Below are positions 18,993-51,753 of a stretch of DNA of 64,000 nt, piece by piece. The notes beneath the pieces were generated by a model. It saw nothing but the letters and a program-made list of their open reading frames with translations. It was not told where the DNA came from and ran no database searches. The stretch lies in contig CP060223.1 of NCBI GenBank assembly GCA_023898465.1, positions 896,001 to 960,000 on the forward strand, given 5' to 3'. Position 1 is the stretch's first letter. Every line of letters begins with the position of its first letter. The stretch comes from Candidatus Nomurabacteria bacterium. GTDB lineage: Bacteria > Patescibacteriota > Patescibacteriia > HK-STAS-PATE-3. The position numbers and the translations under genes are program-made.

Positions 18993-19068
18993 GCGCGCCT
19001 AGCTCAATGGTTAGAGCAGTCGGCTTATATCCGACCGGTTCCAGGTTCGAGCCCTGGGGCGCGCACCA
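18993..19068 (+). tRNA. tRNA-Ile (anticodon UAU), CCA encoded
   Basis: Hand-folded cloverleaf. Acceptor gcgcgcc/ggcgcgc. Anticodon arm gtcgg-cuUAUau-ccgac. T arm ccagg-ttcgagc-cctgg. Confidence 0.85.
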
Positions 19069-28262: not shown

Positions 28263-28338
28263 TGGTGGACCCTACCGGGCTCGAACCGGTCACCTCCGCG
28301 TTGCAAACGCGGCGCTCTACCAAATGAGCTAAGGGCCC
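28263..28338 (-). tRNA. tRNA-Ala (anticodon UGC), CCA encoded
   Basis: Reverse complement gggccct...; G3:U70 present. Anticodon arm ccgcg-uuUGCaa-cgcgg. Confidence 0.9.
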
Positions 28339-28626
28339 TTAATTCAGACTATTCGAAACAGGTGAAAAAATATCCCGTAGAAGAGATGGAACAAATCCAG
28401 TCAGTGTAAGAAAAACAATGAAAATCATGAGGATACCGAGAAGCTTTAAAAAAATTCTCGTACCACCCTCGGTACCGAGATGCTGCTCAGCCCATTCGAT
28501 CCGACCAAACCAGTTCATGAAAAAATCAGTCTTGATCACAAGTAGCGCACCTATCAGTATAACGATTCCACCAATTAAATATCGCATAACTCTTCTCGTA
28601 TTATTAACGCCCCCCCCTAGCACCAT
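28339..28626 (-). CDS. hypothetical small membrane protein
   Basis: Two TM segments. The stop abuts the tRNA-Ala 5' end. The start may be the internal MRYLIGG. Confidence 0.4.
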   Translation of the reverse strand: MVLGGGVNNTRRVMRYLIGGIVILIGALLVIKTDFFMNWFGRIEWAEQHLGTEGGTRIFLKLLGILMIFIVFLTLTGFVPSLLRDIFSPVSNSLN

Positions 28627-28730
28627 CGAGTACTTGAGCTTGAAAAGCTAAGTACGAGATGAAAAGCGGCACGTTTGCAAAGGGCGCAGTCCGGCTTGGC
28701 CGGGCAAAGCCTGGAGCAAACGATGACGTG

Positions 28731-28807
28731 TGGTGGGCGATCCAGGAATCGAACCTGGGACCTCGTCATTATCAGTGACGCGCTCTAACCAACTGAGCTA
28801 ATCGCCC
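28731..28807 (-). tRNA. tRNA-Ile (anticodon GAU), CCA encoded
   Basis: Reverse complement gggcgat...; anticodon arm cgtca-cuGAUaa-tgacg. Confidence 0.9.
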
Positions 28808-28854
28808 ATGTTTGTTCCCCGTGGAACATGATGTAAAACTACATAACAACGCGG

Positions 28855-28940
28855 TGGTGCCGCCGGTCGGACTTGAACCGACATGAGGTTACCCTCAAGG
28901 GATTTTAAGTCCCTCGTGTCTACCATTCCACCACGGCGGC
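28855..28940 (-). tRNA. tRNA-Leu (anticodon UAA), type II, CCA encoded
   Basis: Reverse complement gccgccg...; anticodon arm aggga-cuUAAaa-tccct; long variable arm. Confidence 0.9.
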
Positions 28941-29043
28941 AAGCATTCAAAGCGAATACATGCCATATTTCAACACAAGAATGTCATTCATGCAAGACCA
29001 GCAGGAACCACATGCTAACACGAGTATTTCGGAAAAACAAGAC

Positions 29044-29721
29044 TTACTCGGGTTTATTAAACTCAATCTGCGAAGTAGACTCTTTGCTTCTGCGACTTTT
29101 AATAAACTCCCAGAGGGCGGGCAATAATGAAATAGCAATGATAGCAACTACGACAAAACTAAAATTCTCCTGGATAAAAGGAAGCCTGCCAAAAAAATAT
29201 CCTCCGAACAAGAAAATGCTGACCCAGAGGAATGCTCCAAGCACATTATAAGTGAAAAAGTGACGATATCGCATTAAGCCAACACCTGCAACAAAGGGAG
29301 CTATGGTACGAACAATTGGAACAAATCTCGCAATGACAATTGTCTTTGCTCCATACCTTTCATAAAAACGATGGGTACGGTCAAGATGCTCCTTCCTTAG
29401 CCAACGAGAATTTCTCAACTCATATACTCTTCGACCAAGGTGCTTCCCTATCCAATAGTTTAATCCATCGCCTAACACAGCCGCAGTAAACAGCAAGGCA
29501 AAGAGAAGTATAATATTTAGTGACCCTGCATCAGACAGCGCTCCAGCGGCAAAAAGAAGCGAATCCCCTGGCAAGAAGGGCATAATCACAATGCCCGTCT
29601 CAAGGAAGACAATACCAAAAAGAAGCGCATAGACCCAGGTGCCGTATGTGCTTATAGCTATTCCAAGGCTTTCATCTAAGTGGAGAAAGTATTGAGAAAT
29701 AGTGTGTAATAGCTCGTTCAA
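29044..29721 (-). CDS. DedA-family (VTT domain) membrane protein
   Basis: FLETGIVIMPFLPGDSLLFAAGAL signature. Confidence 0.85.
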   Translation of the reverse strand: MNELLHTISQYFLHLDESLGIAISTYGTWVYALLFGIVFLETGIVIMPFLPGDSLLFAAGALSDAGSLNIILLFALLFTAAVLGDGLNYWIGKHLGRRVYELRNSRWLRKEHLDRTHRFYERYGAKTIVIARFVPIVRTIAPFVAGVGLMRYRHFFTYNVLGAFLWVSIFLFGGYFFGRLPFIQENFSFVVVAIIAISLLPALWEFIKSRRSKESTSQIEFNKPE

Positions 29722-29820
29722 CTTGAATTAGATAATTGTTTCAGTATTTAGTCAAAATGTTATTTTATTTTTTTTGGCTAACTTTAGTGAGGCGATGTTC
29801 CTCGAGGAACTTTTTAATTG

Positions 29821-29895
29821 TGGTGGACCAGAGGGGAGTTGAACCCCTGACCCCTGCAATGCGAATGCAGTGCTCTACCACTGAGCTACTGGCCC
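29821..29895 (-). tRNA. tRNA-Ala (anticodon CGC), CCA encoded
   Basis: Reverse complement gggccag...; G3:U70 present. Anticodon arm ctgca-uuCGCau-tgcag. Confidence 0.9.
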
Positions 29896-29945
29896 TAGTG
29901 TGTTCCTCGTGGAACAAACGGATGGGAGGCCTAAATTATCTAACG

Positions 29946-30021
29946 TGGTGGACCCTACCGGGCTCGAACCGGTCACCTCTTCCATGCCATGGAAGCGCTC
30001 TACCAAATGAGCTAAGGGCCC
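29946..30021 (-). tRNA. tRNA-Ala (anticodon GGC), CCA encoded
   Basis: Reverse complement gggccct...; G3:U70 present. Anticodon arm cttcc-auGGCau-ggaag. Confidence 0.9.
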
Positions 30022-30073
30022 ATGTGAACTACGGATATTTTAAGCTTCTTTTCTCCGTACCTGCCTCAGCCTT

Positions 30074-30145
30074 TGCCCCCACCATGAATCGAACATGGAT
30101 CCAGGGCTTAGGAGTCCCTTGTTCTATCCTTTGAACTATGGGGGC
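30074..30145 (-). tRNA. tRNA-Arg (anticodon CCU), CCA not encoded
   Basis: Reverse complement gccccca...tgggggca. Anticodon loop cuCCUaa with an A31-G39 mismatch at the stem end. T arm ccatg-ttcgatt-catgg. Confidence 0.7.
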
Positions 30146-30325
30146 AGGGGCGGCGGCAGGCAATTTTCTTTTACCCGAGATTTTGTAACTTTTGTAAAAA
30201 GTTATTTTTTTGCTAGCCTTTGCAAAAAATAAGCGTCGTAGAATATTATGTTAAAAATGCATCTAAGTTACGAGCCATTATTACACCAAGTGGCCATTTT
30301 CGCAATGCCTAAAGAGCCAGATCGA

Positions 30326-31567: not shown

Positions 31568-31655
31568 GCTCTAGGAAAAAAAACTTTCGCCTAGCCCGTG
31601 TGAACATGGCATTCACATTGTCTTTTCTTAAAATATCTTGTATAATATTCGCGTA

Positions 31656-32537
31656 ATGAAAGCAAACGGAACAAAAAAACTTGTACGAAAAGCAGTGATT
31701 CTGGTGGCCGGGTATGGTACCCGATTTTTGCCTGCCACCAAAGCACAGCCAAAAGAAATGCTTCCAGTTATTGACACGCCAGCTGTTCAGCTAAGTGTTG
31801 AGGAAGCCATTAATGCCGGTATTGAAGATATTGTGCTCATTACGGGATCCAGCAAAAGAGCAATTGAGGATCACTTTGATGCAAATACTGACCTGGAAAA
31901 TCGATTACGCCAGCAAAAGAAACATGCGCAACTAGAGAGCATTACACGGATTCAACGTCTGGCAAATTTTATTTACGTTCGACAACCTCAGCCGCTCGGA
32001 AATGGTCATGCCACCTTAATGGCTGAAGCAGCGATTGGAAACGAACCTTTTGTTTTACTCTACCCGGATGACTTAATTGTTTCCAAAAAAAATTCTATCA
32101 AGGAAATGATTCAGGTCTACGAGGAATTTCAAGCGCCAGTTATGGGCCTCTTACACGTAGAGAAAAAAGATGTAACAAAGTACGGCATTGCCAAAGTCAA
32201 CCACATCCGTGAACATATCTACGAAGTCTCTCAGGTTATTGAGAAGCCAACTCTCGCACAAGCACCTTCTCAGCTCGCCTCATTAAAAGGCTTTGTTTTC
32301 CCTCCGATAATTTTTGAATACTTACGCAAAGTACGACGCGGCAAAGATGGAGAAATATGGCTGCCAGATGCCGTAGACCTTTATAACAAAAAACATGCCG
32401 TCTTTGGTTGTGAGCTTAATGGTGAAGTATTTGATCTTGGTTCTAAGCTAGGCTGGTTAAAAGCAAATGTTTCTTTTGCGCTTAAGCGACCAGAGCTGCG
32501 TAAAGAATTCCGCGCCTATCTCAAAAAATTAGTCTAA
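31656..32537 (+). CDS. galU: UTP--glucose-1-phosphate uridylyltransferase
   Basis: KAVILVAGYGTRFLPATKAQPKEMLPVIDTP. Confidence 0.9.
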   Translation: MKANGTKKLVRKAVILVAGYGTRFLPATKAQPKEMLPVIDTPAVQLSVEEAINAGIEDIVLITGSSKRAIEDHFDANTDLENRLRQQKKHAQLESITRIQRLANFIYVRQPQPLGNGHATLMAEAAIGNEPFVLLYPDDLIVSKKNSIKEMIQVYEEFQAPVMGLLHVEKKDVTKYGIAKVNHIREHIYEVSQVIEKPTLAQAPSQLASLKGFVFPPIIFEYLRKVRRGKDGEIWLPDAVDLYNKKHAVFGCELNGEVFDLGSKLGWLKANVSFALKRPELRKEFRAYLKKLV

Positions 32538-32545
32538 GGGGGAAC

Positions 32546-33937
32546 ATGCGACGTTACGTCATTCTCATAGGTATCGTACTCATACCGGTTCTGGCCGTAT
32601 TTATTATCGTGTCCGGGGTTATTAATAAACCACAGCCAAATGTACAGGACGTACCATTAACCTTTTGGACAGTACAAGATGACACAAGCGCCTTTACTGA
32701 CGTGATCGCAGCATATCAGCAAGCCCACCCCTACATTACCATCGAGGTCGTACAAAAGCGTGCTCAAGATTATGGTGAGGCACTTATTCAAGCATGGGCA
32801 CGTGGGGACGGGCCTGATATTTTTTCTCTCCCTAATGCAGAGGTTGGAGAATATGCTGACTTTATTGCCCCATTACCTGAGGCAACACAGGTCTATCAAT
32901 ATCAGAACAAACGCGTGCTTCTCAGTAGGCAGCTTGTGATTACACCGGTCACTTCAAGCTCTATCACCCCGGCCCGCCTCAGTAATGACTATGTAGATGT
33001 TATTGCCAGCGATGTTATCCGAGATGGACAAATATATGCACTCCCATTAAGCGTAGACACCTTAGCAGTCTACGTTAATCGCAACCTTCTAAACACTGCT
33101 AATATTGTTTCACCGGCAACAACCTGGCAAGAGCTTATTTCCCAAGTACCTGATCTCACTATTTTTGATGCGCAAAATAATATTATTCAATCTGGGATCG
33201 CACTTGGAACGGCTGAAAATGTTTCCTACTCAGCTGAAATACTCTCACTGCTCATGATGCAAAACGGTACACAAATGACTGACCCAACTGGAACACGTGT
33301 GCAATTTGATCAGGGAACAAAAGAATATAACGCGGGTGAACGAGCTGTTGATTTCTACACCGACTTCTCTGACGAAACAAAAGCAGTCTACAGCTGGTCA
33401 GGGGATAGCTCACACTCAATTGATAGTTTTATCGAAGGTAAGACTGCCTACTTAATTGGCACCTTAGCTGACCAGGCAACAATTCAGGAGCAAAACCCGG
33501 CACTCCGCTATGACATCGTGCCAATGTTCCACATCAATACCGATGGAACCGACACCAGCGGCAGCACGGGAACGCGTACAAAAATTAACTACGCAAAATA
33601 CTGGGTGCAGACAGTGGCAAAAAATTCCGCTCATAGCAATGAGGCTTGGAATTTTGTGCAATACATGAGTCAGTCAGGCGTCGTCGAGGCATATCTCAAC
33701 GCCAGCGGACGTATTTCTCCTCTCCGAAAAATATTAGCACAACAAGTGAATGTGCCGGCCTTACAAGTCTTTGCCAATCAAGCGCTCACTGCGCAAAATT
33801 GGTATCATGGAAACAGCTGGACACAAACTGAAGGCTATCTCAAGCAACTCATCACCGTTGTTGCTGAAAAAACAAAGTTGCCGTTGGAGGCTTTAAGCCA
33901 AGCTGCTAAACAAGTGCAGCTCACCTTTACTGAATAA
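32546..33937 (+). CDS. extracellular solute-binding protein (sugar-type ABC SBP fold), N-terminal TM anchor, no cognate permease or ATPase nearby
   Basis: LTFWTVQDDTSAFTDVIAAYQQAHPYITIEVVQK...GDGPDIFSL pattern of family-1 SBPs. Confidence 0.7.
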   Translation: MRRYVILIGIVLIPVLAVFIIVSGVINKPQPNVQDVPLTFWTVQDDTSAFTDVIAAYQQAHPYITIEVVQKRAQDYGEALIQAWARGDGPDIFSLPNAEVGEYADFIAPLPEATQVYQYQNKRVLLSRQLVITPVTSSSITPARLSNDYVDVIASDVIRDGQIYALPLSVDTLAVYVNRNLLNTANIVSPATTWQELISQVPDLTIFDAQNNIIQSGIALGTAENVSYSAEILSLLMMQNGTQMTDPTGTRVQFDQGTKEYNAGERAVDFYTDFSDETKAVYSWSGDSSHSIDSFIEGKTAYLIGTLADQATIQEQNPALRYDIVPMFHINTDGTDTSGSTGTRTKINYAKYWVQTVAKNSAHSNEAWNFVQYMSQSGVVEAYLNASGRISPLRKILAQQVNVPALQVFANQALTAQNWYHGNSWTQTEGYLKQLITVVAEKTKLPLEALSQAAKQVQLTFTE

Positions 33938-33940
33938 CGC

Positions 33941-34924
33941 ATGTTACGTTTACCCTCAACTCGATTCTGGATCATCTCGGGTTTAAGCATGCTTATTGTA
34001 CTTGGCGCAGTAATACCTGCCCGAGCGGAGATCTTACCAAACTGCGAAAAAACACTTTACAAAGTTGAGCTCAATGGAGATCTCGATTGCCCAGATGGAA
34101 CAAACAATTGTATTGATCCAAATGATTACATACAAACTGTACACGGTGATATCGAACAGGTAATGGTCAACCGGAGCTGTGGTTTCAATGACTTCATTCA
34201 GCTCTTTGTGAATCTCGCAAACTGGGGCTTGGCTATTATGGGTGCCCTGGCTGTTTTCTTCTACATGTACGCGGGCTTCCAATTCTTAACTGCCGGCGGT
34301 CGGAGCGAGAATGTCGAGCAGGGTAAAAAAATTCTCTGGGGCACCACTATGGGAGTGATTATCATGCTGACTGCGTGGGCCGTTATTGGTTTCTATATTG
34401 TTGCTACAACTGGCAGTAACCAAGGCTTTGTTTTTCCTAATGATCCTAACTTCCTAGCCCCTTGGTTTGGTCAGACCGAAACTTGTCGACAGACCTATAT
34501 AAAAAATTACGACCAATCTCAGTGTGGACAAAACAATCTTCATATAAACTGTTCAGACCCGATTGATGGAAGCGATGGACCTGTTACTCGTTTGCAAAGC
34601 ATACTTACTCAGCGAGCTTGTAACCCTGGAGGAATAGACGGCTGTTTTGGTTCAAACACTGAAAGTGGGCTCCGACAATTCCAGAGAGTGAATTGGCGCA
34701 GTGGAATTATTGAAGACGGGGTAGTGAATGCCGATGATTGGAGCACCCTACTCAACACTTCTACTGCGTATGATTGTTCAGTCCCGCTAGGTTGCTGCAT
34801 CAATCCTGATGAACCGAGTCTTTGTTATGATCAAATTCCAGAGGCCTACTGTAACCAGAATGGTTGGACCTTCCTACCAGATAGCTGTGCGAGTTACGAC
34901 TTTGACTGTGAAGGACCAAGTTAA
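33941..34924 (+). CDS. T4SS-pilin-like (TrbC/VirB2-type hairpin) membrane protein fused to a Cys-rich domain and a peptidoglycan-binding-like domain
   Basis: Signal peptide (...IPARA/E). Hairpin motif YAGFQFLTAGGRSENVEQGKKILWGTTMGVIIMLTAW. C-terminal GCFGSNTESGLRQFQRVNWRSGIIEDGVVNADDWSTL resembles the PG_binding_1 pattern. Contains 20 Cys residues. Confidence 0.6.
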   Translation: MLRLPSTRFWIISGLSMLIVLGAVIPARAEILPNCEKTLYKVELNGDLDCPDGTNNCIDPNDYIQTVHGDIEQVMVNRSCGFNDFIQLFVNLANWGLAIMGALAVFFYMYAGFQFLTAGGRSENVEQGKKILWGTTMGVIIMLTAWAVIGFYIVATTGSNQGFVFPNDPNFLAPWFGQTETCRQTYIKNYDQSQCGQNNLHINCSDPIDGSDGPVTRLQSILTQRACNPGGIDGCFGSNTESGLRQFQRVNWRSGIIEDGVVNADDWSTLLNTSTAYDCSVPLGCCINPDEPSLCYDQIPEAYCNQNGWTFLPDSCASYDFDCEGPS

Positions 34925-34937
34925 TTTTCTATTGCAT

Positions 34938-35300
34938 ATGAATACACTACGAAAAAAACGCTTACCACTTATTCTCATGATCGCCGGACTCGTCCTCATG
35001 CCGCTGAGCGCCTTTGCGCAAAGCGGCTCGGCTGTAGCCATACCTAACCCGATTTCGTGTGGTAACTTAATTTGTCTCTTTGTAAACCTCATGCGCCTTA
35101 TTCTGGCCGGCTTAGGTGTCTTTGGCATGGTGATGTTTATTTGGGGAGGCTTTCTCATGCTTACTTCTGCGGGTAATGCTGATCGAATTCAAAAAGGAAA
35201 AGAAACCTTAGTGTGGTCAATTCTTGGTATTTTAGTAATTCTCGGCAGTTGGATACTCCTCAAATCAGTGATTGATGCAATTAACGGGGTTACTAACTAG
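34938..35300 (+). CDS. T4SS-pilin-like small membrane protein (120 aa)
   Basis: Signal peptide ...SAFAQS. Hairpin IWGGFLMLTSAGNADRIQKGKETLVWSILGILVILGSW. Confidence 0.6.
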   Translation: MNTLRKKRLPLILMIAGLVLMPLSAFAQSGSAVAIPNPISCGNLICLFVNLMRLILAGLGVFGMVMFIWGGFLMLTSAGNADRIQKGKETLVWSILGILVILGSWILLKSVIDAINGVTN

Positions 35301-35385
35301 GTTTGACGAAGTAGGAAGAGAGAGGTACGCTATATTCGACATAAGGTGAAGGAACACTTCACAATTGAAAGGGGGTGAGAAACAC

Positions 35386-35751
35386 ATGAAACAACGTACA
35401 CGACTGCTCGGCACACTAGCAGCATTTGCTATACTAGCACTTCCGTTGCTTGTTTCCGCCCAATCTGCTTTCACCGTAGAAAACATCGGTGGATCAGTTG
35501 GTCTCGGTACTGCTGACCTCAAAGATACCGTCATCAACATCATTCAATGGGTGCTTGGTATCCTCGCACTCGTTGCTGTCGTTATGATCATCATTGGTGG
35601 TTTCCAGTGGATGACTGCTGGTGGAAACGACGAAAAGGTGGAAAAGGCCAAGAAGATTATCTCAGCCGCGGTAATTGGTCTTATTATCATCTTGTTGGCT
35701 TGGGCTATTGTCATCTTCGTCGCAAATACAACGGCGAATGTCACTACCTAA
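35386..35751 (+). CDS. T4SS-pilin-like small membrane protein, paralog P1 (121 aa)
   Basis: SD GGGGGTGA. Signal peptide ...VSAQS. Hairpin IIGGFQWMTAGGNDEKVEKAKKIISAAVIGLIIILLAW. Tail ANTTANVTT. Confidence 0.7.
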   Translation: MKQRTRLLGTLAAFAILALPLLVSAQSAFTVENIGGSVGLGTADLKDTVINIIQWVLGILALVAVVMIIIGGFQWMTAGGNDEKVEKAKKIISAAVIGLIIILLAWAIVIFVANTTANVTT

Positions 35752-35777
35752 TCCAATCACGTATTTGGACTTTTAGA

Positions 35778-35808
35778 ACATACCCAGCTCACTGCTGGGT
35801 ATGTTTTT
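35778..35808 (+). terminator. rho-independent terminator of P1
   Basis: 11-bp stem acatacccagc/gctgggtatgt, 5-nt loop, then tttt. Confidence 0.8.
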
Positions 35809-35873
35809 ATTCAAAAAAGCCTTACTATGCTATAGTAGTATATATCTTTGAGAAGAAGAGGGGGTGAATATAC

Positions 35874-36230
35874 ATGAAGAAAGCTTTAATCGCAGTCGGT
35901 ACTTTGGCGCTCGTTGCTATGCCAATGCTTGCATCAGCCCAATCTGCTTTCACCGTTGAAAACGTTGGAGGATCCGTCGGTCTCGGTACCGCTGATTTGA
36001 AGGACACCGTCATCAACATCATTCAATGGGTGCTTGGTATTGTCGCCTTAATCGCTGTCGTTATGATCATCATTGGCGGTTTCCAGTGGATGACTGCTGG
36101 TGGAAACGACGAAAAGGTGGAAAAGGCCAAGAAGATTATATCTTCAGCCGTAGTCGGTTTGATTATTGTGTTACTCGCCTGGGCAATTGTTGTATTCGTT
36201 GCAAACACAACCTCAAACGTTACCGCCTAG
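35874..36230 (+). CDS. T4SS-pilin-like small membrane protein, paralog P2 (118 aa)
   Basis: SD GAGGGGGTGA. Near-identical to P1 and P3. Tail ANTTSNVTA. Confidence 0.7.
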   Translation: MKKALIAVGTLALVAMPMLASAQSAFTVENVGGSVGLGTADLKDTVINIIQWVLGIVALIAVVMIIIGGFQWMTAGGNDEKVEKAKKIISSAVVGLIIVLLAWAIVVFVANTTSNVTA

Positions 36231-36249
36231 CGTACACTTCGCAAATTCT

Positions 36250-36286
36250 GCAAAAGCCCTACCTTATACGAGGGCTTTTGCTTTTT
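36250..36286 (+). terminator. rho-independent terminator of P2
   Basis: 11-bp stem gcaaaagccct/agggcttttgc, then ttttt. Confidence 0.8.
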
Positions 36287-36356
36287 CTGCGCAACTTTTA
36301 TTTTTCATGGTATACTGAATGCATTACATCTTTAGGTAAAGGAGGTGAATGTCAGA

Positions 36357-36725
36357 ATGACCATAAAACGATTTCTTCCCTTAGCGCTACTCGGACTTAC
36401 CTTGGTATTACTGCCTTCTACTGTAGCAGCTCAATCAACCGCCTTTACGATCGAAAATATTGGTGGATCAATCGGTCTCGGTACCGCTGATTTGAAGGAC
36501 ACCGTCATCAACATCATTCAATGGGTGCTTGGTATCCTTTCATTAGTAGCCGTTGTTATGATTATTTTTGGTGGCTTTACCTGGATGACTGCCGGAGGTG
36601 CTGAAGATAAAGTTGATCAAGCCAAGCGTATTATCACCGCTGCAGTAATTGGTCTTATCATCATCTTGTTGGCTTGGGCTATTGTCATCTTCGTCGCAAA
36701 TACAACGGCGAACGTTACCACTTAG
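36357..36725 (+). CDS. T4SS-pilin-like small membrane protein, paralog P3 (122 aa)
   Basis: SD AAAGGAGGTGA. The ATG at 36357 is preferred over the GTG at 36345. Tail ANTTANVTT. Confidence 0.7.
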   Translation: MTIKRFLPLALLGLTLVLLPSTVAAQSTAFTIENIGGSIGLGTADLKDTVINIIQWVLGILSLVAVVMIIFGGFTWMTAGGAEDKVDQAKRIITAAVIGLIIILLAWAIVIFVANTTANVTT

Positions 36726-36743: not shown

Positions 36744-36780
36744 CACAGACCTCTCCATATTTGGGGAGGTTTTGTGCTTT
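36744..36780 (+). terminator. rho-independent terminator of P3
   Basis: Stem core cctctcc/ggggagg with flanking extension, followed by a T-rich run. Confidence 0.65.
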
Positions 36781-36809
36781 TGGCTGACTCCGCTACACTA
36801 TGAACGCAT

Positions 36810-38816
36810 ATGTCTAAAATACCGGATAGAACACAGGCCTGGCTGCTAGGAATGATGATCTGTATGATTGTTATCTCTTTTGCAGGTCAATACGTAAAAT
36901 GGCAAAGTCTGGCCTATAACGGACTCGATTTGGGTATTTACACTCAAGTAGTATCAGAAACCAGCCAAGGGAATTTCTTTGGCTTCACCATTCACCCGCA
37001 CTCCTACTTGGGTGACCATGTTGAATTTTTACTATTACTCCTTGTGCCTCTTTTTTGGATTGTGGCTCATCCACTCTGGCTCTTGGCCGCACAAAGCCTT
37101 GTGTTGGCTTTAGGCGCTATCCCTATATTTCGCCTTGCACGCAAAAAACTAAATGGTAACTGGGCTCTAGGTTTAAGTGCAGCCTACCTTTTTTCGCCTT
37201 TCCTCTGGAATGCAAACATGTATGAATTTCACATGTTAGCTTTTGCAATTCCAATCTTACTTGCGGCACTACAAACCTACATCACTAAATCACTCAAGTG
37301 GCATTGGCTTTGGCTGGCTTTGGCCTTGCTCGTACGAGAAGATGTTGCCTTTGTAGTATTTGGCATTGGTATTGTGGCTGCAATTGAGCGGAGGAATTGG
37401 AAATGGTGGCTACCCACCTTTTTGGTTAGCGCTGCCTGGTTTGGATGTAGTATTTATCTCGCTGGATCCTTGGGCACTTTGGGTGAATATAAATTTCTCA
37501 AATACTATGGATGGCTCGGCCCCGATCTTGTTTCTATTATCGGAAACTTTTTTGGACATCCCTGGCTCGTACTCCAACGCGTGCTTCATCCGCAAGCGCT
37601 TGCTTTCTTGCTAGGCCTAGGACTCCCTTTTGCCTATTTGCCAATCTTCCGACTTCGTTGGCTTATCCCGATCTTACCTATCTACTTACAACTTTCTCTC
37701 TCAGGAGTTGCGCGAGAAATCTCACTAGAAATGCACTACGTGAGTTTGTTCTTACCATTTCTCTGGATTGGCTCTATTGAGGCAATACACAAACTTCGTA
37801 GTGAAATGGGAAAAACTCGACGAGGAAAATTTATCCAAGAATACGCCGGGGTTATTGTTAGCGTACTCGCTGTTGTGGCAATATATTGCTTCATCGTAAT
37901 CGGTCCGATTCGCGGCCTGGCACAAACCTGGTATCGACCAGATACGCAACGTGAACATGAACAGTTAGCCAGAGATGTGCTCAACATTGTACCCGATACC
38001 ACACCTCTCGCAACTGGATATCGCTTTATTTCATGGACAGCCACTCGACCCGTGTTGTACTCCTTGCACTATCTTTTTATTGGCCGGCAACAATATAGCG
38101 ATGAAAGTTTCCCACTTGACCCTAGCATCCAAACGCTGCTCATAGACCAAAGTGATTTTGTTACCTATCAATCAGTCTATCCGGAAGATAATACCGACTA
38201 CAAAGGTGGTGCCCAGCGCTTCCGCGATCTCATTGAAGAAAGAAAGCTTCAGCTCAATCTCATGGTTGACGATCTCTTGCTCTATACAAACACCCATACT
38301 ACATCCCAAAAAGAATTAGTGCGTATTGGAAATGAAGATCAACTAAGACAAAGCCTCTTTCAGACAAGCAACGGACTCATCTTGCACTCCTGGGAGAATA
38401 ATGAAGGAATCAACAAACTTCAAAGTGAATATGTGCATATTAACACGCACAACTACCTCACCCTCCCGCTCTCGTTTATCTGGTCTCAGCATGAAATAAC
38501 AACGCGTCATAATACCGTACTACTCACACTGACTCGGGGAGACGGCGCAGTGTATCAAAAAGAATATCCCATCGCCCCGCTCTGGCCGCAATCAGAGTGG
38601 CCATTAGATACTCCAATGATTACGCAACACCAATTTCTCATCCCGACCGACTTCGCCCAAAGTGATACCCAGATAGCAATGGATGTGATGTCGATTCGGG
38701 GTCGATTAAGTTTGGATACCCAACGCTCTATCGTGCCTCGCTACGATGAACACGACTCCTTGGGCCACCTTAATCTCGGAAATCTTATTCTACCGGACGC
38801 AAGCGATACAGAGTAA
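36810..38816 (+). CDS. DUF2079-family polytopic membrane protein (putative glycosyltransferase)
   Basis: N-terminal YNGLDLGIYTQVVSETSQGNFF...HPHSYLGDHVEF pattern, about 12 TM segments, and a large C-terminal extracytoplasmic domain. Confidence 0.65.
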   Translation: MSKIPDRTQAWLLGMMICMIVISFAGQYVKWQSLAYNGLDLGIYTQVVSETSQGNFFGFTIHPHSYLGDHVEFLLLLLVPLFWIVAHPLWLLAAQSLVLALGAIPIFRLARKKLNGNWALGLSAAYLFSPFLWNANMYEFHMLAFAIPILLAALQTYITKSLKWHWLWLALALLVREDVAFVVFGIGIVAAIERRNWKWWLPTFLVSAAWFGCSIYLAGSLGTLGEYKFLKYYGWLGPDLVSIIGNFFGHPWLVLQRVLHPQALAFLLGLGLPFAYLPIFRLRWLIPILPIYLQLSLSGVAREISLEMHYVSLFLPFLWIGSIEAIHKLRSEMGKTRRGKFIQEYAGVIVSVLAVVAIYCFIVIGPIRGLAQTWYRPDTQREHEQLARDVLNIVPDTTPLATGYRFISWTATRPVLYSLHYLFIGRQQYSDESFPLDPSIQTLLIDQSDFVTYQSVYPEDNTDYKGGAQRFRDLIEERKLQLNLMVDDLLLYTNTHTTSQKELVRIGNEDQLRQSLFQTSNGLILHSWENNEGINKLQSEYVHINTHNYLTLPLSFIWSQHEITTRHNTVLLTLTRGDGAVYQKEYPIAPLWPQSEWPLDTPMITQHQFLIPTDFAQSDTQIAMDVMSIRGRLSLDTQRSIVPRYDEHDSLGHLNLGNLILPDASDTE

Positions 38817-40422
38817 GCTCGCCTGATTGGTATACTGTCTGAAGTGCAGAAATCGCGCTTGGATCAGCCACACTATTCCGCGTATCAAATTCACCCCATA
38901 GTAAATAATCCACACTCTGCTCTCGCAACCATCTTTCAAGGGCAGTATTTCCACTTTGGCGCGCTACAATAAAACCATCTGATTTGTCATTGTAATGCAA
39001 GGTTTCAATCGGGTGTCCAAATACCACTGCCCGACCCGCCCAAGCTGGTATATAGAGATTGCCAATTTTCCCAGCTGCAAAAACTGCACGAGTATCGGTG
39101 TGTGTTTTCATCCAGTCACTCATATCTTGATAAGATTGATCGACGTAGAGGTGGTATGGCGGCTGACGAAAAGTATCATTCGTCCAAAGATGTACATCCA
39201 TGCCCACTAAAGCAATCGGCGAAAGACTAAACACTACTACGGCCAGCATTGGAGTGGCTACATAGCGAGACCAGCTTACTAATGGAAATCGCTTGAATAC
39301 TATACGAAGACCAATAAAAGCAAATAAAGCTAGGGGGAGCATCCAACCTTCAGTTAGGCGGCGACTAAAACTAATCGGCAAAAAGAAAATACATGCTTGC
39401 CCAAACAACCACGCAAGCGGCATTGCGTAGGTGCTTCGATCACGACCTAGTTGAAACAAAGCAAGAAGGGCCAGCGGAATAAGAGCGCCATAGCTAATAA
39501 GTGTGGTAAAAAAGAATGGCATAGTATTCACATTCTGAGCCGCTCGGCTATTCGCAATTGGGTCAAAAAGTATTATCCCAACTTGGTAGAAAATCATTGG
39601 CAGCGCTAGTCCTCCTACAAGAAGCGCCCCCCACAAAGCCCGTGCCGTTTTATCCCGCTGCCATAAAAAAGTGAAGAGTATAAAAAGCACAAAAACCCCT
39701 ATCACTGTTGGTAAGTGAAAGGGGTGAAAGCTCATAAGTAAAAAAAGCGACAGGCCGCTTTGCAAAAAATACTGTATTTGCTTTTGCTGCACCCCGAGGT
39801 AATACCAATGAAAAATGAGAATAAGTAATGAGGTGGCTAAAATAAAATGCGGGCTCTGATACATCGTTAAAAATGTATACGCTTCACTTACCCAGAGATC
39901 CATCGGCCAAATCGCCCACTCAATAAATCCAAAAATGTATTTAATAAAAGGATATGCAATTGCTCCAAATCCTGCAGCAAAAAGAAAAAGCAAAATAGCA
40001 AATTTACGCTCACGCCATGCCGGAAGAAAATTGCGTAAGAAAATTTCGCTCGACCATAGGAGTAAGGGGATGAGGAGGATTCGGGCTAAATGAAAACTTA
40101 CTAATGCGGAAAGGTGCAGCCACTTTGCCATATATCCAACAACAATCCAGATTGGACTGAAAATAAAAGCGTCATGCGGCTCAGCAGTAAACAAATCCCT
40201 AAGCATCACCTGTCCCTGTTTTACCTGTTCTATGTAGGAAAAATAGACCGGCAAATCACCTGGAGCCAGTGTATGTCCTCCGGTAAAAATCATCCCATCT
40301 GCCTGCATCATCCACGCGTAGAGGTAAGGGAACGTTGTGAGAATAACTAAAGCGAGGGCTATCCACCAAAACCAACGACGTGGCATTTTTTCAGCATCTG
40401 GGTGAAGAGAAAAAAACTGCAT
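38785..40422 (-). CDS. polytopic membrane protein, GT-C-fold glycosyltransferase-like
   Basis: More than 10 TM segments plus a C-terminal soluble domain. Last gene of the coupled operon. Its 3' end overlaps the convergent DUF2079 gene by 32 nt. Confidence 0.45.
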   Translation of the reverse strand: MQFFSLHPDAEKMPRRWFWWIALALVILTTFPYLYAWMMQADGMIFTGGHTLAPGDLPVYFSYIEQVKQGQVMLRDLFTAEPHDAFIFSPIWIVVGYMAKWLHLSALVSFHLARILLIPLLLWSSEIFLRNFLPAWRERKFAILLFLFAAGFGAIAYPFIKYIFGFIEWAIWPMDLWVSEAYTFLTMYQSPHFILATSLLILIFHWYYLGVQQKQIQYFLQSGLSLFLLMSFHPFHLPTVIGVFVLFILFTFLWQRDKTARALWGALLVGGLALPMIFYQVGIILFDPIANSRAAQNVNTMPFFFTTLISYGALIPLALLALFQLGRDRSTYAMPLAWLFGQACIFFLPISFSRRLTEGWMLPLALFAFIGLRIVFKRFPLVSWSRYVATPMLAVVVFSLSPIALVGMDVHLWTNDTFRQPPYHLYVDQSYQDMSDWMKTHTDTRAVFAAGKIGNLYIPAWAGRAVVFGHPIETLHYNDKSDGFIVARQSGNTALERWLREQSVDYLLWGEFDTRNSVADPSAISALQTVYQSGELTLYRLRPVE

Positions 40423-41120
40423 TACTTCTGAGAGCGAAACAATAATGCAAGAATCATTTGAGCGTATTCACGAGCAATCGTGAATGAAATTTTACTCTTG
40501 CCATATTGGCGATCCTGAAAAACATAGCCGATTTCTGTGGTCTGAAGTGGACGCGCTCGAACCAAAATCTCTACTAAAAGTTTATACCCGCGCGGACGTA
40601 AAGTATGTGCAATGCGTGTATACACATCTCGTCGTACGGCAAAATATCCGCTCATAGGATCACGCTCTCGAATACCGAGCATCACCTGAGCAATCCTAGT
40701 AGCAAACCAACTCATGGCTTGGCGTCGCAGAGGCCAACCTAACATACCGCCGCCACTAACAAAGCGTGAACCGATAGCCACGTCATTACCTAACTGCACC
40801 GCCCTAATCATCTGCGGAATAATTGCCGTATCATGCGAAAGATCGGCATCCATGCAAATAAAAATTTCTGATCTGGCCTCTTCCATACCAGCCATCAGTG
40901 CAGAAGCAAGGCCTAACTTACCTGTTCGCTCAATAACCCTGACTGGATAGTGAGCAGCCAGCGAACGAACAAGCTGAGCGGTCCCATCTGGCGAAGCATC
41001 GTCAACCACAATTATCTCGACAACCAGCTGCAAGCGGGCAATCTGTCGAAGGCACGCCTCAATGTTCTCCTTTTCATTATAGGTTGGCAGGATAATGCTA
41101 GCTTTTGGCAAGGCGCTCAT
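40422..41120 (-). CDS. polyprenol-monophosphate mannose synthase (GT2, Dpm1/Ppm1-like)
   Basis: SIILPTYNEKENI...VVDDASPDGTAQLV...CMDADLSHD. Confidence 0.85.
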   Translation of the reverse strand: MSALPKASIILPTYNEKENIEACLRQIARLQLVVEIIVVDDASPDGTAQLVRSLAAHYPVRVIERTGKLGLASALMAGMEEARSEIFICMDADLSHDTAIIPQMIRAVQLGNDVAIGSRFVSGGGMLGWPLRRQAMSWFATRIAQVMLGIRERDPMSGYFAVRRDVYTRIAHTLRPRGYKLLVEILVRARPLQTTEIGYVFQDRQYGKSKISFTIAREYAQMILALLFRSQK

Positions 41121-42406
41121 GAAGATACGGATTTGGACTGATCGCTCGACCCTGATGAAGTATAAGGCAGGGCTGCTAATAGGAAAACAAGCGCGAGGTA
41201 ACCCAGGTGTGTGTCATTAAAATACCGGGCAAAAAACCAAAAAACAAGCAGGGTAAATCCATAGTACCAGAAGATATTTTGCAGGGAAATGTCTAGTCGA
41301 CTCTTCCTCAATAAAAGGAGAAAACTCGGGATTCCAATGCAGAGAGAAAAAACCCAAAATGGGAAATGTCCGTAGGGATCAATAACATGAAAAGTTGCCA
41401 TCCACTGGGCAATACCTAAACCTGATGCTGGATAACTCAACTCAGCGCTGCCGTTTGCATACTTCCAAACGTCATCATAAAAAGCTCCTGGCGACCAGAG
41501 AAAGAAAAAACCCATAACCACAATAAGGAGAAGTAGCGAAGGAAATAATGGACGATATACTTGCCGCCAAGGACCTGGTTTCCGGCGCTGCCATACTGCT
41601 ACGAGGTAAAATGGCACAAAGAGCCAGGCGGACTGCTTCATCAGTAAAGCAAAAACCAGAGCAAATCCCGAGCTCGTGTATCTGCCTCGATAAAGCGCTA
41701 GGGCTGCGAGGAAGAGGAAAAGCAATACGGTGATGTCATTCAACCCAGCCACAATAAACTTCAACATAAATGGATTCAACGCAGTAAGGATAATTGCTAG
41801 ATCTCTCCAAGGAGCTTGCACGGTTTTTGCTAAGAGTAAGAGGAAGGCAATCCAAAAAAGTAAGTACAGCGCACGTACATCAAACCAACCAGTAAATCGC
41901 TCTAGGCTCCATTGCCACGGCGCCACGATAAGGAAAGAGCCTGGTAAATACACATAGTGCTCCCAGGCTGGATTGGGTCGCGTGCTATCAGAAAAACGAT
42001 CAGGGAACACACCAAAAGCTGTACCACGATAATCACTCGCATAAGGATTTTTACCCTGTAGGAGAAAATGACTCGCTTCCTCAGTCTGGATTGCACCATC
42101 GTGCACATATGCTTCTAGTGGACGATAAGGTCGTACCAGCATCTGCAAGGTACAGACGGTCACTAGGATGCCTATGCTTAAGATAAGGACGATCCTTGTT
42201 CGCATCTCATCTGCTGATGGGGCAAAGATAAGACTTAATCCATACGCAAACACCAGCAACAAAGGCAGGATGCCAAACCAGAAAAGTGGTGTGGGGGAAA
42301 AGAAATAACTAAAGGCCTGCTGACCTGAAAAAACCTCGGCCATCACATAAAGCACGAGGAGAAGAATGAGAACAAAAGTAAAACGTCGAATCGTGATTCC
42401 GTTCAT
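41117..42406 (-). CDS. polytopic membrane glycosyltransferase, GT87/DUF2029-like
   Basis: Loop motif HDGAIQTEEASHFLLQGKNPYASDY, many TM segments, and an ATGA overlap with the next gene. Confidence 0.55.
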   Translation of the reverse strand: MNGITIRRFTFVLILLLVLYVMAEVFSGQQAFSYFFSPTPLFWFGILPLLLVFAYGLSLIFAPSADEMRTRIVLILSIGILVTVCTLQMLVRPYRPLEAYVHDGAIQTEEASHFLLQGKNPYASDYRGTAFGVFPDRFSDSTRPNPAWEHYVYLPGSFLIVAPWQWSLERFTGWFDVRALYLLFWIAFLLLLAKTVQAPWRDLAIILTALNPFMLKFIVAGLNDITVLLFLFLAALALYRGRYTSSGFALVFALLMKQSAWLFVPFYLVAVWQRRKPGPWRQVYRPLFPSLLLLIVVMGFFFLWSPGAFYDDVWKYANGSAELSYPASGLGIAQWMATFHVIDPYGHFPFWVFSLCIGIPSFLLLLRKSRLDISLQNIFWYYGFTLLVFWFFARYFNDTHLGYLALVFLLAALPYTSSGSSDQSKSVSS

Positions 42407-44041
42407 TTACGGAGCAACTGCATAAATCTTAGCCTCCTTGTCTTCGTAGACCAGTGAGACCCCCTCTGTACCATCTACTAAACGATCCATAGCTACATGA
42501 TCTTTAGTAACAACTACGTACGATGCATGAAAAGTATCACGTAGAGTGGTACTCACCGTGCTCGGATCTGACTTCCCGGTGGTTAAATCAACCCAAGCCC
42601 AATAGCGATCTTCATCGTGGGCATACAAAAAGGTTGGATCTAAACCAGCAATATAGCGATGTGATGGATCATAGTAAAAAAGGAGTGGAAACTCATCCCA
42701 GTCACTATGTACGACAATCTCGTCTGATGGGGCATTTGCTTTTAACCAAGTGCCAACACCAGACAGGGTTGAGGCATCTTGCCCACCCGCTAGGTCGCGT
42801 CGCACATTTCGCAAGTCACGTACACCCACGCCAACCACTCCTATAACAACATAGGCGAGGATTATCACTGCGACCGTTTTTGAAAGGACGCTATGACGCC
42901 ACCCGGCCACAACATCTCGCAAAAGCGCTTTACCTGCCTTACCAGAGAGTGCGTCGCTGATGGAAAAAGCTCCAAACAACATACCAATCGGCACATAGTA
43001 TTCAACGTAGCGCTTGGACTTCAGGGTAAGCAGGAAAAAGAAAATGGTTAGCAAGAAGAGGGTCCAGGAGCGGACAGACTGCTTTCGTAATTGCAGAGCC
43101 ATACCGAATATCCCTAACACCACCACAATAGAAACAAAGATGGTGGTAGGAATAAGCTCACCGATGTGATACGGATACCACTCTCCGCCTACGCCAATGC
43201 TATGTTGCGCATTAATAATGCCAATCTTAAAAAGCTGGTATTCGTAAAATCGAATGTTGTGCGGGAAGCTAGGATTAAGCAATAGACCTGCCAGCATCCC
43301 ACCCCCAACCGCCAAACCTATGGTGATGTAAAGACGCCAAGAAGCTTCATGGTGTCGCCAACGATCATACTGCTCATGCAGACGAGTAAGGAGAGAACGA
43401 GAATCACTCTGATGGAGTATCCAATAACGGACTAAGCCCACCAGGCAAAACACCGCTGTACAAACAAGCAGCAGGGAAAATCCGCCGTATACCCAAACAA
43501 AAATCCATGAGTACACAAAAGCCCACTTTGCTCGGAAGTGAAACACCAACCATAAACCAGCCAAAAGAAGTGTCACTCCCAGAACAGGCGCTTTTGGTAA
43601 ACCCATCCGAAACATGAATGGATTCACAAACAAAAGCAACAAGGTAAATACAAATGCCCATCGCACTTGGAAGGAACGAAGGAGGCCATAGAACATGCCA
43701 GCCATCACTGCAGTGAGTAAAATAGTGGCGACTTTTATCCCGACCAGTGGATCAGCTATAGAAACAAACGGGATGAGAATAACGTGATAAAGAAAATGCT
43801 GATTAATGTAATTCTCACTCAGGGATGTAAAAGGCAGCCAGGGAAACTGCGTAAAAAAACCTTTGTCAGCTACCAGGGTTGCCATCCGAGCATGATAAAA
43901 AGAATCAGGATCAGCAAAAGCATCATGCAATTGCAAATACGATGCAATGACCAGGGCAATCATCATGATAAGCAGACCGGTCAGAAAGGGCGTCCGGCAA
44001 AAGATACGATAGATTTTATACCACCAAGCCTCCTTTTCCAT
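42407..44041 (-). CDS. polytopic GT-C membrane glycosyltransferase (PMT/ArnT-like or STT3/AglB-like)
   Basis: First-loop motif ADPDSFYHARMATLVADKG. Later motifs GGEWYPYHIGEL and VVHSDWDEFPLLFYYDPSHRYIAGLDP. About 13 TM segments and a short C-terminal soluble domain. Confidence 0.5.
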   Translation of the reverse strand: MEKEAWWYKIYRIFCRTPFLTGLLIMMIALVIASYLQLHDAFADPDSFYHARMATLVADKGFFTQFPWLPFTSLSENYINQHFLYHVILIPFVSIADPLVGIKVATILLTAVMAGMFYGLLRSFQVRWAFVFTLLLLFVNPFMFRMGLPKAPVLGVTLLLAGLWLVFHFRAKWAFVYSWIFVWVYGGFSLLLVCTAVFCLVGLVRYWILHQSDSRSLLTRLHEQYDRWRHHEASWRLYITIGLAVGGGMLAGLLLNPSFPHNIRFYEYQLFKIGIINAQHSIGVGGEWYPYHIGELIPTTIFVSIVVVLGIFGMALQLRKQSVRSWTLFLLTIFFFLLTLKSKRYVEYYVPIGMLFGAFSISDALSGKAGKALLRDVVAGWRHSVLSKTVAVIILAYVVIGVVGVGVRDLRNVRRDLAGGQDASTLSGVGTWLKANAPSDEIVVHSDWDEFPLLFYYDPSHRYIAGLDPTFLYAHDEDRYWAWVDLTTGKSDPSTVSTTLRDTFHASYVVVTKDHVAMDRLVDGTEGVSLVYEDKEAKIYAVAP

Positions 44042-46006: not shown

Positions 46007-46487
46007 GTCACGTCGCATTCTCGGAATTGACCCTGGCTATGGACGACTCGGTTACGGAGTGCTGGAGGAAAAAGATCGGACGCTCCACTGTGAAAGCTAC
46101 GGCTGCATCGAAACACCGGCGAAAGAAGAAGCACCAGTCCGGCTAGCTAAGATTGCCCAAGAGCTACGCAGCATTTTACAACGCTATCAACCTGACCTCA
46201 TCGCAGTAGAAAAACTTTTCTTTGCAAAAAACACCAAGACAGCCCTCGGGGTAAGTGAAGCACGGGGAGTAGTACTCCTGATTGCACAAGAATACGGTGC
46301 AGAAATACAAGAATTTACACCAGTAGAAGTAAAACTAGCCTTAACCGGCTACGGACAAGCAAATAAAGATCAAGTACAGCAGATGGTAGAACGCCTCCTC
46401 AAAGTAGAGGAAAAAATCGCCAGCGATGATGCGGCAGACGCACTGGCAATCGCCATCTGTGCCGCCCACACAAAAATACCTACATGA
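45996..46487 (+). CDS. ruvC: crossover junction endodeoxyribonuclease RuvC
   Basis: RILGIDPGYGRLGYGVLE...AVEKLFFAKN...DAADALAIAICA. Confidence 0.9.
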   Translation: MPNKSRRILGIDPGYGRLGYGVLEEKDRTLHCESYGCIETPAKEEAPVRLAKIAQELRSILQRYQPDLIAVEKLFFAKNTKTALGVSEARGVVLLIAQEYGAEIQEFTPVEVKLALTGYGQANKDQVQQMVERLLKVEEKIASDDAADALAIAICAAHTKIPT

Positions 46488-50248: not shown

Positions 50249-50304
50249 TTGTACGGTAGGTGCGCATAGAACTTTCATTAGACAATTAATTCCTTAGAAA
50301 AAAC

Positions 50305-51675: not shown

Positions 51676-51699
51676 GCAGGTTCTTATATAGAATACGTG

Positions 51700-51727
51700 C
51701 AGCGCGTCCAAATGGGCGCGCTGTTTG
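51700..51727 (+). terminator. rho-independent terminator
   Basis: 10-bp stem cagcgcgtcc/gggcgcgctg, 4-nt loop, then tttg. Confidence 0.6.
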
Positions 51728-51753
51728 TAAAAAAATGCTACAATAAGTGAAGC

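Follow-up and report, generated by a model that had tools for sequence, protein, structure and literature searches.

The window analysed here is a 64-kb stretch of chromosome (64,000 nucleotides) within the 1,082,586-bp contig of an NCBI metagenome-assembled genome (MAG) labelled 'Candidatus Nomurabacteria bacterium', and the subject of this study is an array of five consecutive forward-strand genes, designated g1 to g5, whose products share a membrane hairpin related to the pilins of type IV secretion systems (T4SSs). The first gene, g1 (33941-34924, 327 aa, USN53415.1, named 'peptidoglycan-binding protein' by NCBI), joins a pilin hairpin to extracytoplasmic domains; g2 (34938-35300, 120 aa) encodes a divergent 'minor-type' pilin with two cysteines directly before helix 1; and g3 (35386-35751, 121 aa), g4 (35874-36230, 118 aa) and g5 (36357-36725, 122 aa, beginning at the ATG at 36357 that is also the NCBI start) are copies 1 to 3 of a 'major-type' pilin. 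The starts of all five genes coincide with the NCBI gene calls (proteins USN53415.1 to USN53419.1, locus tags H6760_04650 to 04670), in which g2-g5 are called 'hypothetical'. An initial annotation of this DNA, which had recognised five consecutive same-strand genes sharing a signal peptide and a TrbC/VirB2-type hairpin, is borne out by these coordinates and by the profile searches described below.

A tandem array of VirB2-related hairpin proteins

All five products score above the gathering cut-off (26.6 bits) of the Pfam family PF18895 (T4SS_pilin), with 29.7 bits for g1, 32.1 for g2, 55.8 for g3, 58.1 for g4 and 47.5 for g5. The TrbC/VirB2 family PF04956 (cut-off 27.9 bits) gives a full-length, sub-threshold match to g3 (24.0 bits, E 4.5e-5, profile positions 10-95 of 98), a further match below cut-off to g2 (17.7 bits) and none to g1, g4 or g5. 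The cut-off of NF045849 (Mbov_0395 pilin-like conjugal transfer protein; 40 bits) is exceeded by g4 (41.5), while g3 (39.5), g2 (32.2), g5 (30.1) and g1 (14.8) remain below it. Hydropathy and motif scans find in each of the five proteins an N-terminal Sec-type signal sequence and two long hydrophobic helices separated by a short charged loop, T(A/S)(G/A)G...K, and the AlphaFold2 model of g4 consists of a signal helix followed by a hairpin (helices 42-73 and 79-114), which on fold comparison with solved structures resembles ATP-synthase c subunits as much as pilins. The same motif scans found no LPxTG sorting signal in g1-g5, nor any class III prepilin signal (G then F/M-T-L-I-E), and no N_methyl-type Pfam match was obtained. 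Profiles and models together establish g1-g5 as Sec-signal hairpin proteins of a VirB2-related family, predicted to be inserted through Sec, to be cleaved after an A-x-A-type site and to span the membrane as hairpins whose two ends face outwards.

The last three genes had been described as near-identical, which overstates their similarity: over the whole protein, g3 and g4 are 84% identical, g3 and g5 80%, and g4 and g5 72% (78-90% over the mature part), and in g3-g5 pairs the synonymous divergence (dS) is saturated at 1.0-1.8, with a ratio of nonsynonymous to synonymous divergence (dN/dS) of 0.11-0.20. From these values, g3-g5 are to be read as old copies kept similar by purifying selection and not as recent duplicates. 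Recent duplication or gene conversion of g3-g5, considered as an explanation of their likeness, is ruled out because dS is saturated. The 'independently tuned expression' of near-identical paralogs that had been proposed was likewise built on the overstated identity. The remaining members are far more distant, with 26-32% identity between g2 and g3-g5, and 26-41% between either g1 or g2 and the rest of the array. In a neighbour-joining tree, g3-type copies mostly cluster by genome, implying that duplication occurred repeatedly within single lineages or that the copies evolved in concert.

Conservation of the major type extends well beyond this genome. A total of 532 homologs of g4 were recovered, the best 120 of which are mostly 60-85% identical to it, and g2 orthologs show about 26-33% identity to g4. 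The extracytoplasmic C-terminal tail of the major pilins, A(N/G/R)TTxNVTx (35725-35748, 36204-36227 and 36699-36722, forward strand, in g3, g4 and g5, and homologs P0165-P0281), is nearly invariant, its N-x-S/T sequon being kept in 113 of the 120 homologs, and the mature N-terminus, ...F(T/S)(V/I)E(N/D)xGxxxGLGTADLK, is likewise conserved. Judged by their conservation, the tail and the N-terminus could be a processing, cyclisation or glycosylation signal. The antigenic variation that has been proposed as a reading of patescibacterial pilin arrays is at odds with this lineage, where the paralogs are held similar by purifying selection.

Each major-pilin gene is preceded by a strong Shine-Dalgarno sequence (GGGGGTGA, 7 nt upstream of g3; AGGAGGTGA, 8 nt upstream of g5; also before g4) and followed on the forward strand by an intrinsic terminator with a U-tract, located at 35775-35812 after g3 (14-bp stem, dG -22.3 kcal/mol, z -6.96), at 36250-36288 after g4 (11-bp stem, dG -17.6 kcal/mol, z -4.97) and at 36744-36785 after g5 (dG -20.2 kcal/mol, z -5.03; the same hairpin is found by the terminator scan). 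The z-scores were obtained from 200 shuffles, none of which (0/200) folded as stably as the g3, g4 and g5 hairpins. The individual Shine-Dalgarno sequences and strong terminators that had been attributed to g3-g5 are therefore present, but the further claim that each is monocistronic with its own promoter is not established, since the hairpin folding test found no terminator in the g2-g3 gap and the promoter scan yielded no more than a 9/12 match upstream of g3, with none upstream of g4 or g5. A strong Shine-Dalgarno sequence and a terminator for each copy are usual for genes of major subunits.

Two alternative-frame open reading frames (ORFs) on the forward strand, 35547-35867 (106 aa) and 36026-36490 (154 aa), overlap g3 and g4-g5, respectively; they are almost certainly not genes and recur because the pilin genes themselves repeat. 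Short-read assemblies, both of this organism and of related ones, break at the repeated major-pilin genes (contig L001 ends within g3, and L012-L014 end after the first g3-type copy), and for this reason draft MAGs probably under-count the copy number of such arrays.

A family of pilin::PG_binding_1 fusions

The architecture of g1 had been described as a hairpin embedded between cysteine-containing domains, the C-terminal one with a PG_binding_1-like motif, and both profile search and structure prediction agree with this. On the forward strand, the gene encodes a signal peptide (33941-34027, aa 1-29, A-R-A followed by E; hydrophobic segment 6-30, AxA at residue 27), a transmembrane helical hairpin representing the pilin core (34184-34411, aa 82-157; PF18895 match aa 91-151) and a PG_binding_1 domain (34580-34753, aa 214-271). 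The domain matches PF01471 over residues 214-265 with 27.1 bits, against a cut-off of 23. The AlphaFold2 model, based on an alignment of 34 homologs (mean pLDDT 85.5), has from the N-terminus onwards a signal helix, a small N-domain rich in beta structure, the hairpin (82-117 and 122-157) and a C-terminal region composed of a three-helix module and Cys-rich strands. The above-threshold PF01471 score and the three-helix fold are thus found in the same protein, and together they identify what the profile and the model both present as a genuine PG_binding_1 fold. All 16 cysteines lie outside the hairpin, the N-domain having four of them and the C-domain 12. With the hairpin in a VirB2 topology, both of these domains would lie outside the membrane, and the position of PG_binding_1 after the second transmembrane helix, together with the 16 cysteines, fits an extracytoplasmic location.

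The fusion is not confined to this genome. A HMMER search with g1 against 1.84 billion representative sequences gave 8,470 matches at E <= 1e-3, 25 of them below 1e-30, and among 93 selected representatives of the g1 family, 89 carry T4SS_pilin, 62 of the 93 also carry PG_binding_1 and four carry PG_binding_3. Counted as clusters at 50% identity, there are at least 62 such fusions, indicating a sizeable family and not a one-off. The orthologs range from 256 to 661 aa, with identity to g1 falling to about 34%. No hydrolase or other catalytic domain was found in g1 or in any of the 93 family representatives, and the NCBIfam matches of g1 to SleB and peptidoglycan hydrolases span the binding domain only. 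A VirB1-like hydrolase role for g1 was also considered, and is ruled out by the lack of any lytic transglycosylase, amidase or peptidase domain in g1 and its 93 relatives. No mention of a pilin::PG_binding_1 fusion was found in the literature.

Pilin hairpins are also joined to binding domains other than PG_binding_1, as shown by a cluster on contig L018 (12675-16481; also present on L019) in which a 155-aa pilin, a 383-aa pilin-PKD fusion and a 718-aa PKD-repeat protein stand beside a poly-pilin. Among the ORFs tested, no VirB4 was found within 10 kb of the L018/L019 cluster, the setting of which is housekeeping. The PKD fusions fit a general theme of pilins carrying a binding domain. The poly-pilins themselves, found with a hidden Markov model made from the pilins of the window, are single polypeptides of 501-820 aa with 6-8 tandem PF18895 hairpins (P0046, P0076, P0077, P0110, P0145; L018 9925-12387), and P0046 is present on three independent contigs.

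The surrounding module and its chromosomal context

The array lies within an operon-like block of genes that recurs in related genomes. Upstream, on the same strand, are galU (31638-32537), which encodes a UTP-glucose-1-phosphate uridylyltransferase (TIGR01099, E 8.5e-95, 317.2 bits, slightly below the cut-off of 326.8; Pfam NTP_transferase) and forms the first gene of the module, and a gene for a membrane-anchored solute-binding protein (SBP) of sugar type (32546-33937; SBP_bac_1, PF01547, E 1.6e-17). The SBP has weak PDB matches to sugar-binding proteins, an N-terminal transmembrane helix and no lipobox, and no ABC permease or ATPase partner was found nearby. The junctions measure 8 nt between galU and SBP and 3 nt between SBP and g1, in agreement with the range of 3-8 nt given initially, and 13 nt between g1 and g2. 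Directly downstream of the array is a gene for a DUF2079 polytopic membrane protein (36810-38816, forward strand; PF09852, E 1.3e-58), followed on the reverse strand by genes for a 545-aa conserved polytopic membrane protein (38785-40422; no Pfam match, with an ortholog in the same position in relatives), a GT2 enzyme resembling polyprenyl-phosphate-mannose synthase (40422-41120; PF00535, E 1e-34; PDB 5mlz, dolichol monophosphate mannose synthase, E 2.2e-50), a 429-aa GT-C-type membrane glycosyltransferase (41117-42406; GT87 / MptA-B-like) and, last of the block, a 544-aa conserved polytopic membrane protein (42407-44041; orthologs on L008 and L009 43-45% identical and in the same position). 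The GT-C-type enzyme was assigned by homology to relatives, its BLASTP matches (E 1e-30 to 1e-54) being to L008 and L009 genes with GT87, MptA_B, PMT_2 or ALG3 Pfam matches.

The order galU, SBP, fusion pilin, g2-type pilin, one or more g3-type pilins, DUF2079, then membrane and glycosyltransferase genes recurs in contigs from Logan, NCBI and ENA reached through g1 and g4 homologs (L002-L006, L008-L010, L012 and L017) and in 26 of 80 JGI metagenome loci. The SBP gene lies directly upstream of the fusion in the same ten contigs and in all metagenome loci that show this region (20/20), many of them with the two genes overlapping by 4 nt, and galU lies upstream in 19/19 metagenome loci with a visible region. 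All 24 complete metagenome arrays have the order fusion, minor pilin, one to three major pilins, a g2-type ortholog being present in 24/24 and the number of g3-type copies being one in 16 loci, two in four and three in four. A DUF2079 ortholog occupies the same position in L002, L005, L008 and L009 and in 24 metagenome loci. The genes upstream of galU, by comparison, vary (bactofilin and DAGK, alanine racemase, poly(A) polymerase, or a divergently oriented PMT protein mannosyltransferase), and this variation next to a fixed block indicates that the block is conserved beyond background synteny. The proposed link of the array to galU, the SBP and membrane glycosyltransferases is therefore upheld, being kept in every related locus inspected. 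The conserved galU-SBP-pilin-DUF2079-glycosyltransferase module was not found in the literature.

Where PMT (protein O-mannosyltransferase, GT39) is the divergent neighbour, it stands just upstream of galU (L010, 807-2189, and L012, 4482-5663, both on the reverse strand). Taken together, 12 contig look-ups and 80 metagenome loci gave three kinds of context, namely the galU-SBP module, a housekeeping setting with a solitary major-type pilin, and the poly-pilin/PKD cluster. Solitary g3-type pilins occur in 16 further long loci, in other housekeeping settings (DnaB, Band 7, P-type ATPase, AsnRS), and no VirB4 was found among the large ORFs tested in these 16 loci. Six loci (L041, L052, L078, L082, L083 and L087) have near position 10000 one g3-type pilin with 52-64% identity to g4, set in a conserved stretch of genes, which in L078 reads, by Pfam, DnaB, Band 7, pilin, P-type cation ATPase and AsnRS/AspRS-type synthetases, with no fusion pilin, SBP or T4SS genes. 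The 895-903-aa ORFs beside solitary pilins were considered as VirB4 candidates and rejected, the representative from L078 being a P-type ATPase.

The remainder of the window is ordinary chromosome, with gyrA, ftsH, S1, rnc, nusB, tyrS, ten tRNAs, glycogen synthases, GH57 enzymes and a DedA/UptA-like gene; the GC content is flat across the locus (about 0.44-0.45), and a tblastn search of 72,556 plasmids gave no match. An origin of the array from an integrated conjugative element (ICE) or a plasmid is rejected on this flat GC content and the lack of a plasmid match. The DedA-family protein (29044-29721, reverse strand; 262.6 bits against an NCBIfam cut-off of 236) shows weaker similarity to the undecaprenyl-phosphate transporter UptA, and its gene, placed some 2 kb upstream of the module, lies within a cluster of six tRNA genes (28263-30146). 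A glycogen/alpha-glucan cluster (46484-55128) comprises an amylase-like gene, two GT5 starch synthases, two GH57 genes, a kinase and a GalT-like gene, and with a UDP-glucose dehydrogenase (25396-26682), other nucleoside diphosphate-sugar genes and galU it makes the window strongly sugar-centred. ARAGORN identified a tRNA-Ile with anticodon TAT (UAU) at 18993-19068, an uncommon bacterial way to read AUA. The closest relatives with the same genes are labelled Kerfeldbacteria (class ABY1 in Table S1 of a published survey of patescibacterial T4SS pilins, PMC12102498) or 'Patescibacteria group', and from these relatives the NCBI label 'Candidatus Nomurabacteria' may be imprecise.

Function of the array and comparison with known systems

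The locus would best be understood as encoding the structural subunits of a patescibacterial VirB2-like pilus or pilus-like polymer, with the T4SS encoded elsewhere and g1 as a wall-binding anchor or adhesin, an interpretation whose chances of being right and wrong appear to us evenly balanced. Under this interpretation, g3-g5 would represent isoforms of a major pilin that is strongly conserved and expressed at a high level, g2 would be a minor pilin, the hairpin of g1 would assemble together with the major pilin, and the disulfide-rich domains on the outer side of g1, which include PG_binding_1, would grip peptidoglycan. By analogy with the basal pilins of sortase-assembled pili, g1 may hold the polymer base in the wall of the cell itself, or it may be an adhesin for the wall of a host bacterium; the wall-anchored base subunit suggested in the initial annotation is plausible from the domain content, and a host-wall adhesin fits the data equally well. 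Polymerisation would be carried out by a VirB4-type T4SS encoded elsewhere in the 1.08-Mb genome, and seven of the nine Kerfeldbacteria genomes listed in Table S1 of the survey are VirB4-positive (PMC12102498). The galU, SBP, DUF2079, GT-C and GT2 genes probably serve to build or decorate the surrounding envelope glycan. More speculatively, the set of GalU, polyprenyl-phosphate-mannose synthase and GT-C enzyme might glycosylate the pilins at the TTxNVT tail, or make a glycan layer that the polymer crosses, and the SBP might conceivably act as a structural or sensing partner of g1.

Several observations weigh against such a pilus. As noted at the outset for VirB4, VirD4 and VirB6, no match to these proteins, nor to VirB3, a relaxase or an integrase, was obtained among the approximately 60 ORFs scanned in the window, some of which were compared with Pfam only and some with NCBIfam only, several having no match at all. 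In about 45 long related loci, the subset of ORFs tested within about 10 kb of the major pilin contained no T4SS gene, VirB4 included, and the presence of VirB4 in this genome is an assumption of the interpretation. Conservation of the major pilin at 60-85% where g1 falls to about 34% is unusual for a surface pilin. To our knowledge, a pilus has yet to be observed on any patescibacterium in this lineage, and peptidoglycan binding, assembly and glycosylation are all inferred.

The main rival is a T4SS-independent envelope module, in which the hairpins would be abundant membrane components (a membrane-to-wall tether, ring or scaffold) and not extruded pilins, acting together with the co-conserved SBP, DUF2079 protein, GT-C enzymes and polyprenyl-phosphate-sugar synthase to build the envelope, and g1 would link the membrane to peptidoglycan. 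The order galU-SBP-fusion-pilins-DUF2079-GT-C in every locus inspected, with differing flanks upstream of galU, the translational coupling or overlap of SBP and fusion in 20/20 loci, and the very strong conservation of the major type all speak for it; VirB4 was never seen near related pilins in the subset of ORFs tested, polyproteins of 6-8 hairpins are easier to imagine as a membrane bundle, and the hairpin is equally similar to ATP-synthase c subunits and to pilins. However, the profiles place these proteins in a VirB2/TrbC-related family, the same family lies inside T4SS clusters and is essential in other Patescibacteria, solitary major-type pilins occur in unrelated contexts without glycan genes, and gene neighbourhood is by itself no proof of shared function, all of which leaves this a possible but rather unlikely explanation. 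A bolder form of it, in which the whole block would be a self-contained, T4SS-independent envelope system of a Kerfeldbacteria-like lineage, with VirB2-type hairpins co-opted into a glycosylated, peptidoglycan-tethered polymer or conduit and the SBP as a stoichiometric partner, is held to be doubtful; if true, the conjugative-pilin fold would have been put to a new use, and one would have an explanation in structural terms of how a monoderm epibiont of ultrasmall size bridges a cell wall or holds on to it.

A further alternative accepts g2-g5 as pilins and differs in making g1 a tip or lateral adhesin for host peptidoglycan, which would stand in for the VirB5- or PrgB-type adhesin that is missing. 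Most Patescibacteria live as epibionts, a PrgB-like adhesin has not been found among them and VirB5 lies outside their T4SS (PMC12102498, PMC12857230); g1 stands first in the array, its ectodomains diverge fast and vary in length (256-661 aa), as expected of host-contact proteins, and sister fusions carry PKD domains of adhesin type. Known PG_binding_1 domains, on the other hand, usually target the producer's own wall or a wall under lysis, the peptidoglycan of diderm hosts is covered by an outer membrane, and the localisation of g1 is a prediction, on which grounds this specific role is judged improbable. That the genes are a remnant or cargo of an ICE, encoding ordinary conjugative pilins with no chromosomal role, is suggested by NF045849, a Mycoplasma ICE protein and the nearest of the named NCBIfam families, and by a Pfam name that refers to conjugation. 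This last explanation is effectively refuted by the housekeeping context (gyrA, ftsH, rnc, tRNAs and glycogen genes), the lack of an integrase, relaxase or coupling protein among the window ORFs scanned, the flat GC content of about 0.44-0.45 with no match in 72,556 plasmids, and the presence of the same chromosomal module, under purifying selection, in dozens of relatives.

Taken as a pilus or pilus-like polymer, the locus bears on a question raised in recent reviews, namely whether the essential, Gram-positive-like T4SS of Patescibacteria builds a pilus, and in what way such a pilus would cross or hold a wall (PMC12857230, PMC11665869), the possible pilus of monoderm T4SSs being counted by a 2025 review among the most exciting unsettled points (PMC12857230). 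It offers as candidates a conserved multi-copy major pilin, a minor pilin, and a pilin with a peptidoglycan-binding domain, which could serve as the anchor or adhesin that is missing. Its invariable company of an SBP and a polyprenyl-phosphate-sugar/GT-C set suggests a coupling between the biogenesis of the pilus and the synthesis of envelope glycan, and the pilins may be glycosylated. The fusion of a pilin with a peptidoglycan-binding domain, its coupling to SBP and glycosylation genes, and a conserved multi-copy major pilin remote from T4SS genes appear to be undescribed.

Compared with the TrbC/VirB2 pilins (PF04956; T-pilus, RP4 and F-like), the array proteins share a long signal peptide, two hydrophobic helices, a short basic loop and about 70-95 mature residues, but they fall below the PF04956 gathering score, have no adjacent virB3-virB11, and belong to an organism assumed from the literature to be monoderm; cyclisation and the other known maturation steps of TrbC/VirB2 are not in evidence here. 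Mbov_0395 of Mycoplasma ICEs (NF045849) resembles them in that both are hairpin proteins, related to the MPF-FATA class, from lineages that have no wall or are monoderm, whereas here the setting is a housekeeping chromosome, not an ICE, and only one of the five genes reaches the cut-off. In sortase-assembled Gram-positive pili, a specialised basal pilin beside the major pilin ties the polymer to peptidoglycan; here, in contrast, there is no LPxTG motif or sortase, the fold is unrelated, and the attachment of g1 would be non-covalent, through PG_binding_1. The protein g1 differs also from wall enzymes containing PG_binding_1 (SleB, phiKZ gp144, CtpB and L,D-transpeptidases), since the partner of the binding domain is a pilin hairpin and no catalytic domain is present. 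Genes for type IV pilin glycosylation adjoin pilin genes in Pseudomonas (TfpW, a GT-C enzyme, and PilO/TfpO), and the present locus is similar in having GT-C-type glycosyltransferases near a major pilin with a Ser/Thr-rich exposed tail (here TTxNVT), although the pilin superfamily is different and glycosylation is hypothetical here.

The closest counterparts are the other patescibacterial pilin arrays reported in 2023-2025, the PF18895 family sitting elsewhere within T4SS clusters. A survey with PF18895 and PF04956 (Quinonero-Coronel et al. 2025, PMC12102498) found VirB2-like pilins in 1,948 VirB4-positive Patescibacteria assemblies, near virB4 in 1,135 and not near it in 813, and identified 441 arrays of 2-11 genes in 383 assemblies, with a within-array identity of 25% on average and 54% at most. 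An array was defined there as at least two PF18895/PF04956 genes in tandem or one non-pilin gene apart in a Patescibacteria genome (PMC12102498), and the five tandem pilin genes form an array in this sense. In Southlakia epibionticum such an array is essential (PMC10633639, PMC12857230). The statement that the genes could not be assigned to a described system is therefore outdated, as this kind of feature is already known, the fusion and the module being additional. With the arrays of S. epibionticum (SEML1_0006-0019), TM7x ('Sec-secreted array') and the 441 surveyed, g1-g5 have in common the PF18895 family, a tandem same-strand arrangement of small Sec-signal hairpins, and a pilin that is often not beside virB4. 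In contrast with the surveyed arrays, one member here is fused to PG_binding_1, g3-g5 are 72-84% identical against a maximum of 54%, no T4SS gene is seen for more than 27 kb on either side, and the array is embedded in the conserved galU-SBP...DUF2079/GT-C module.

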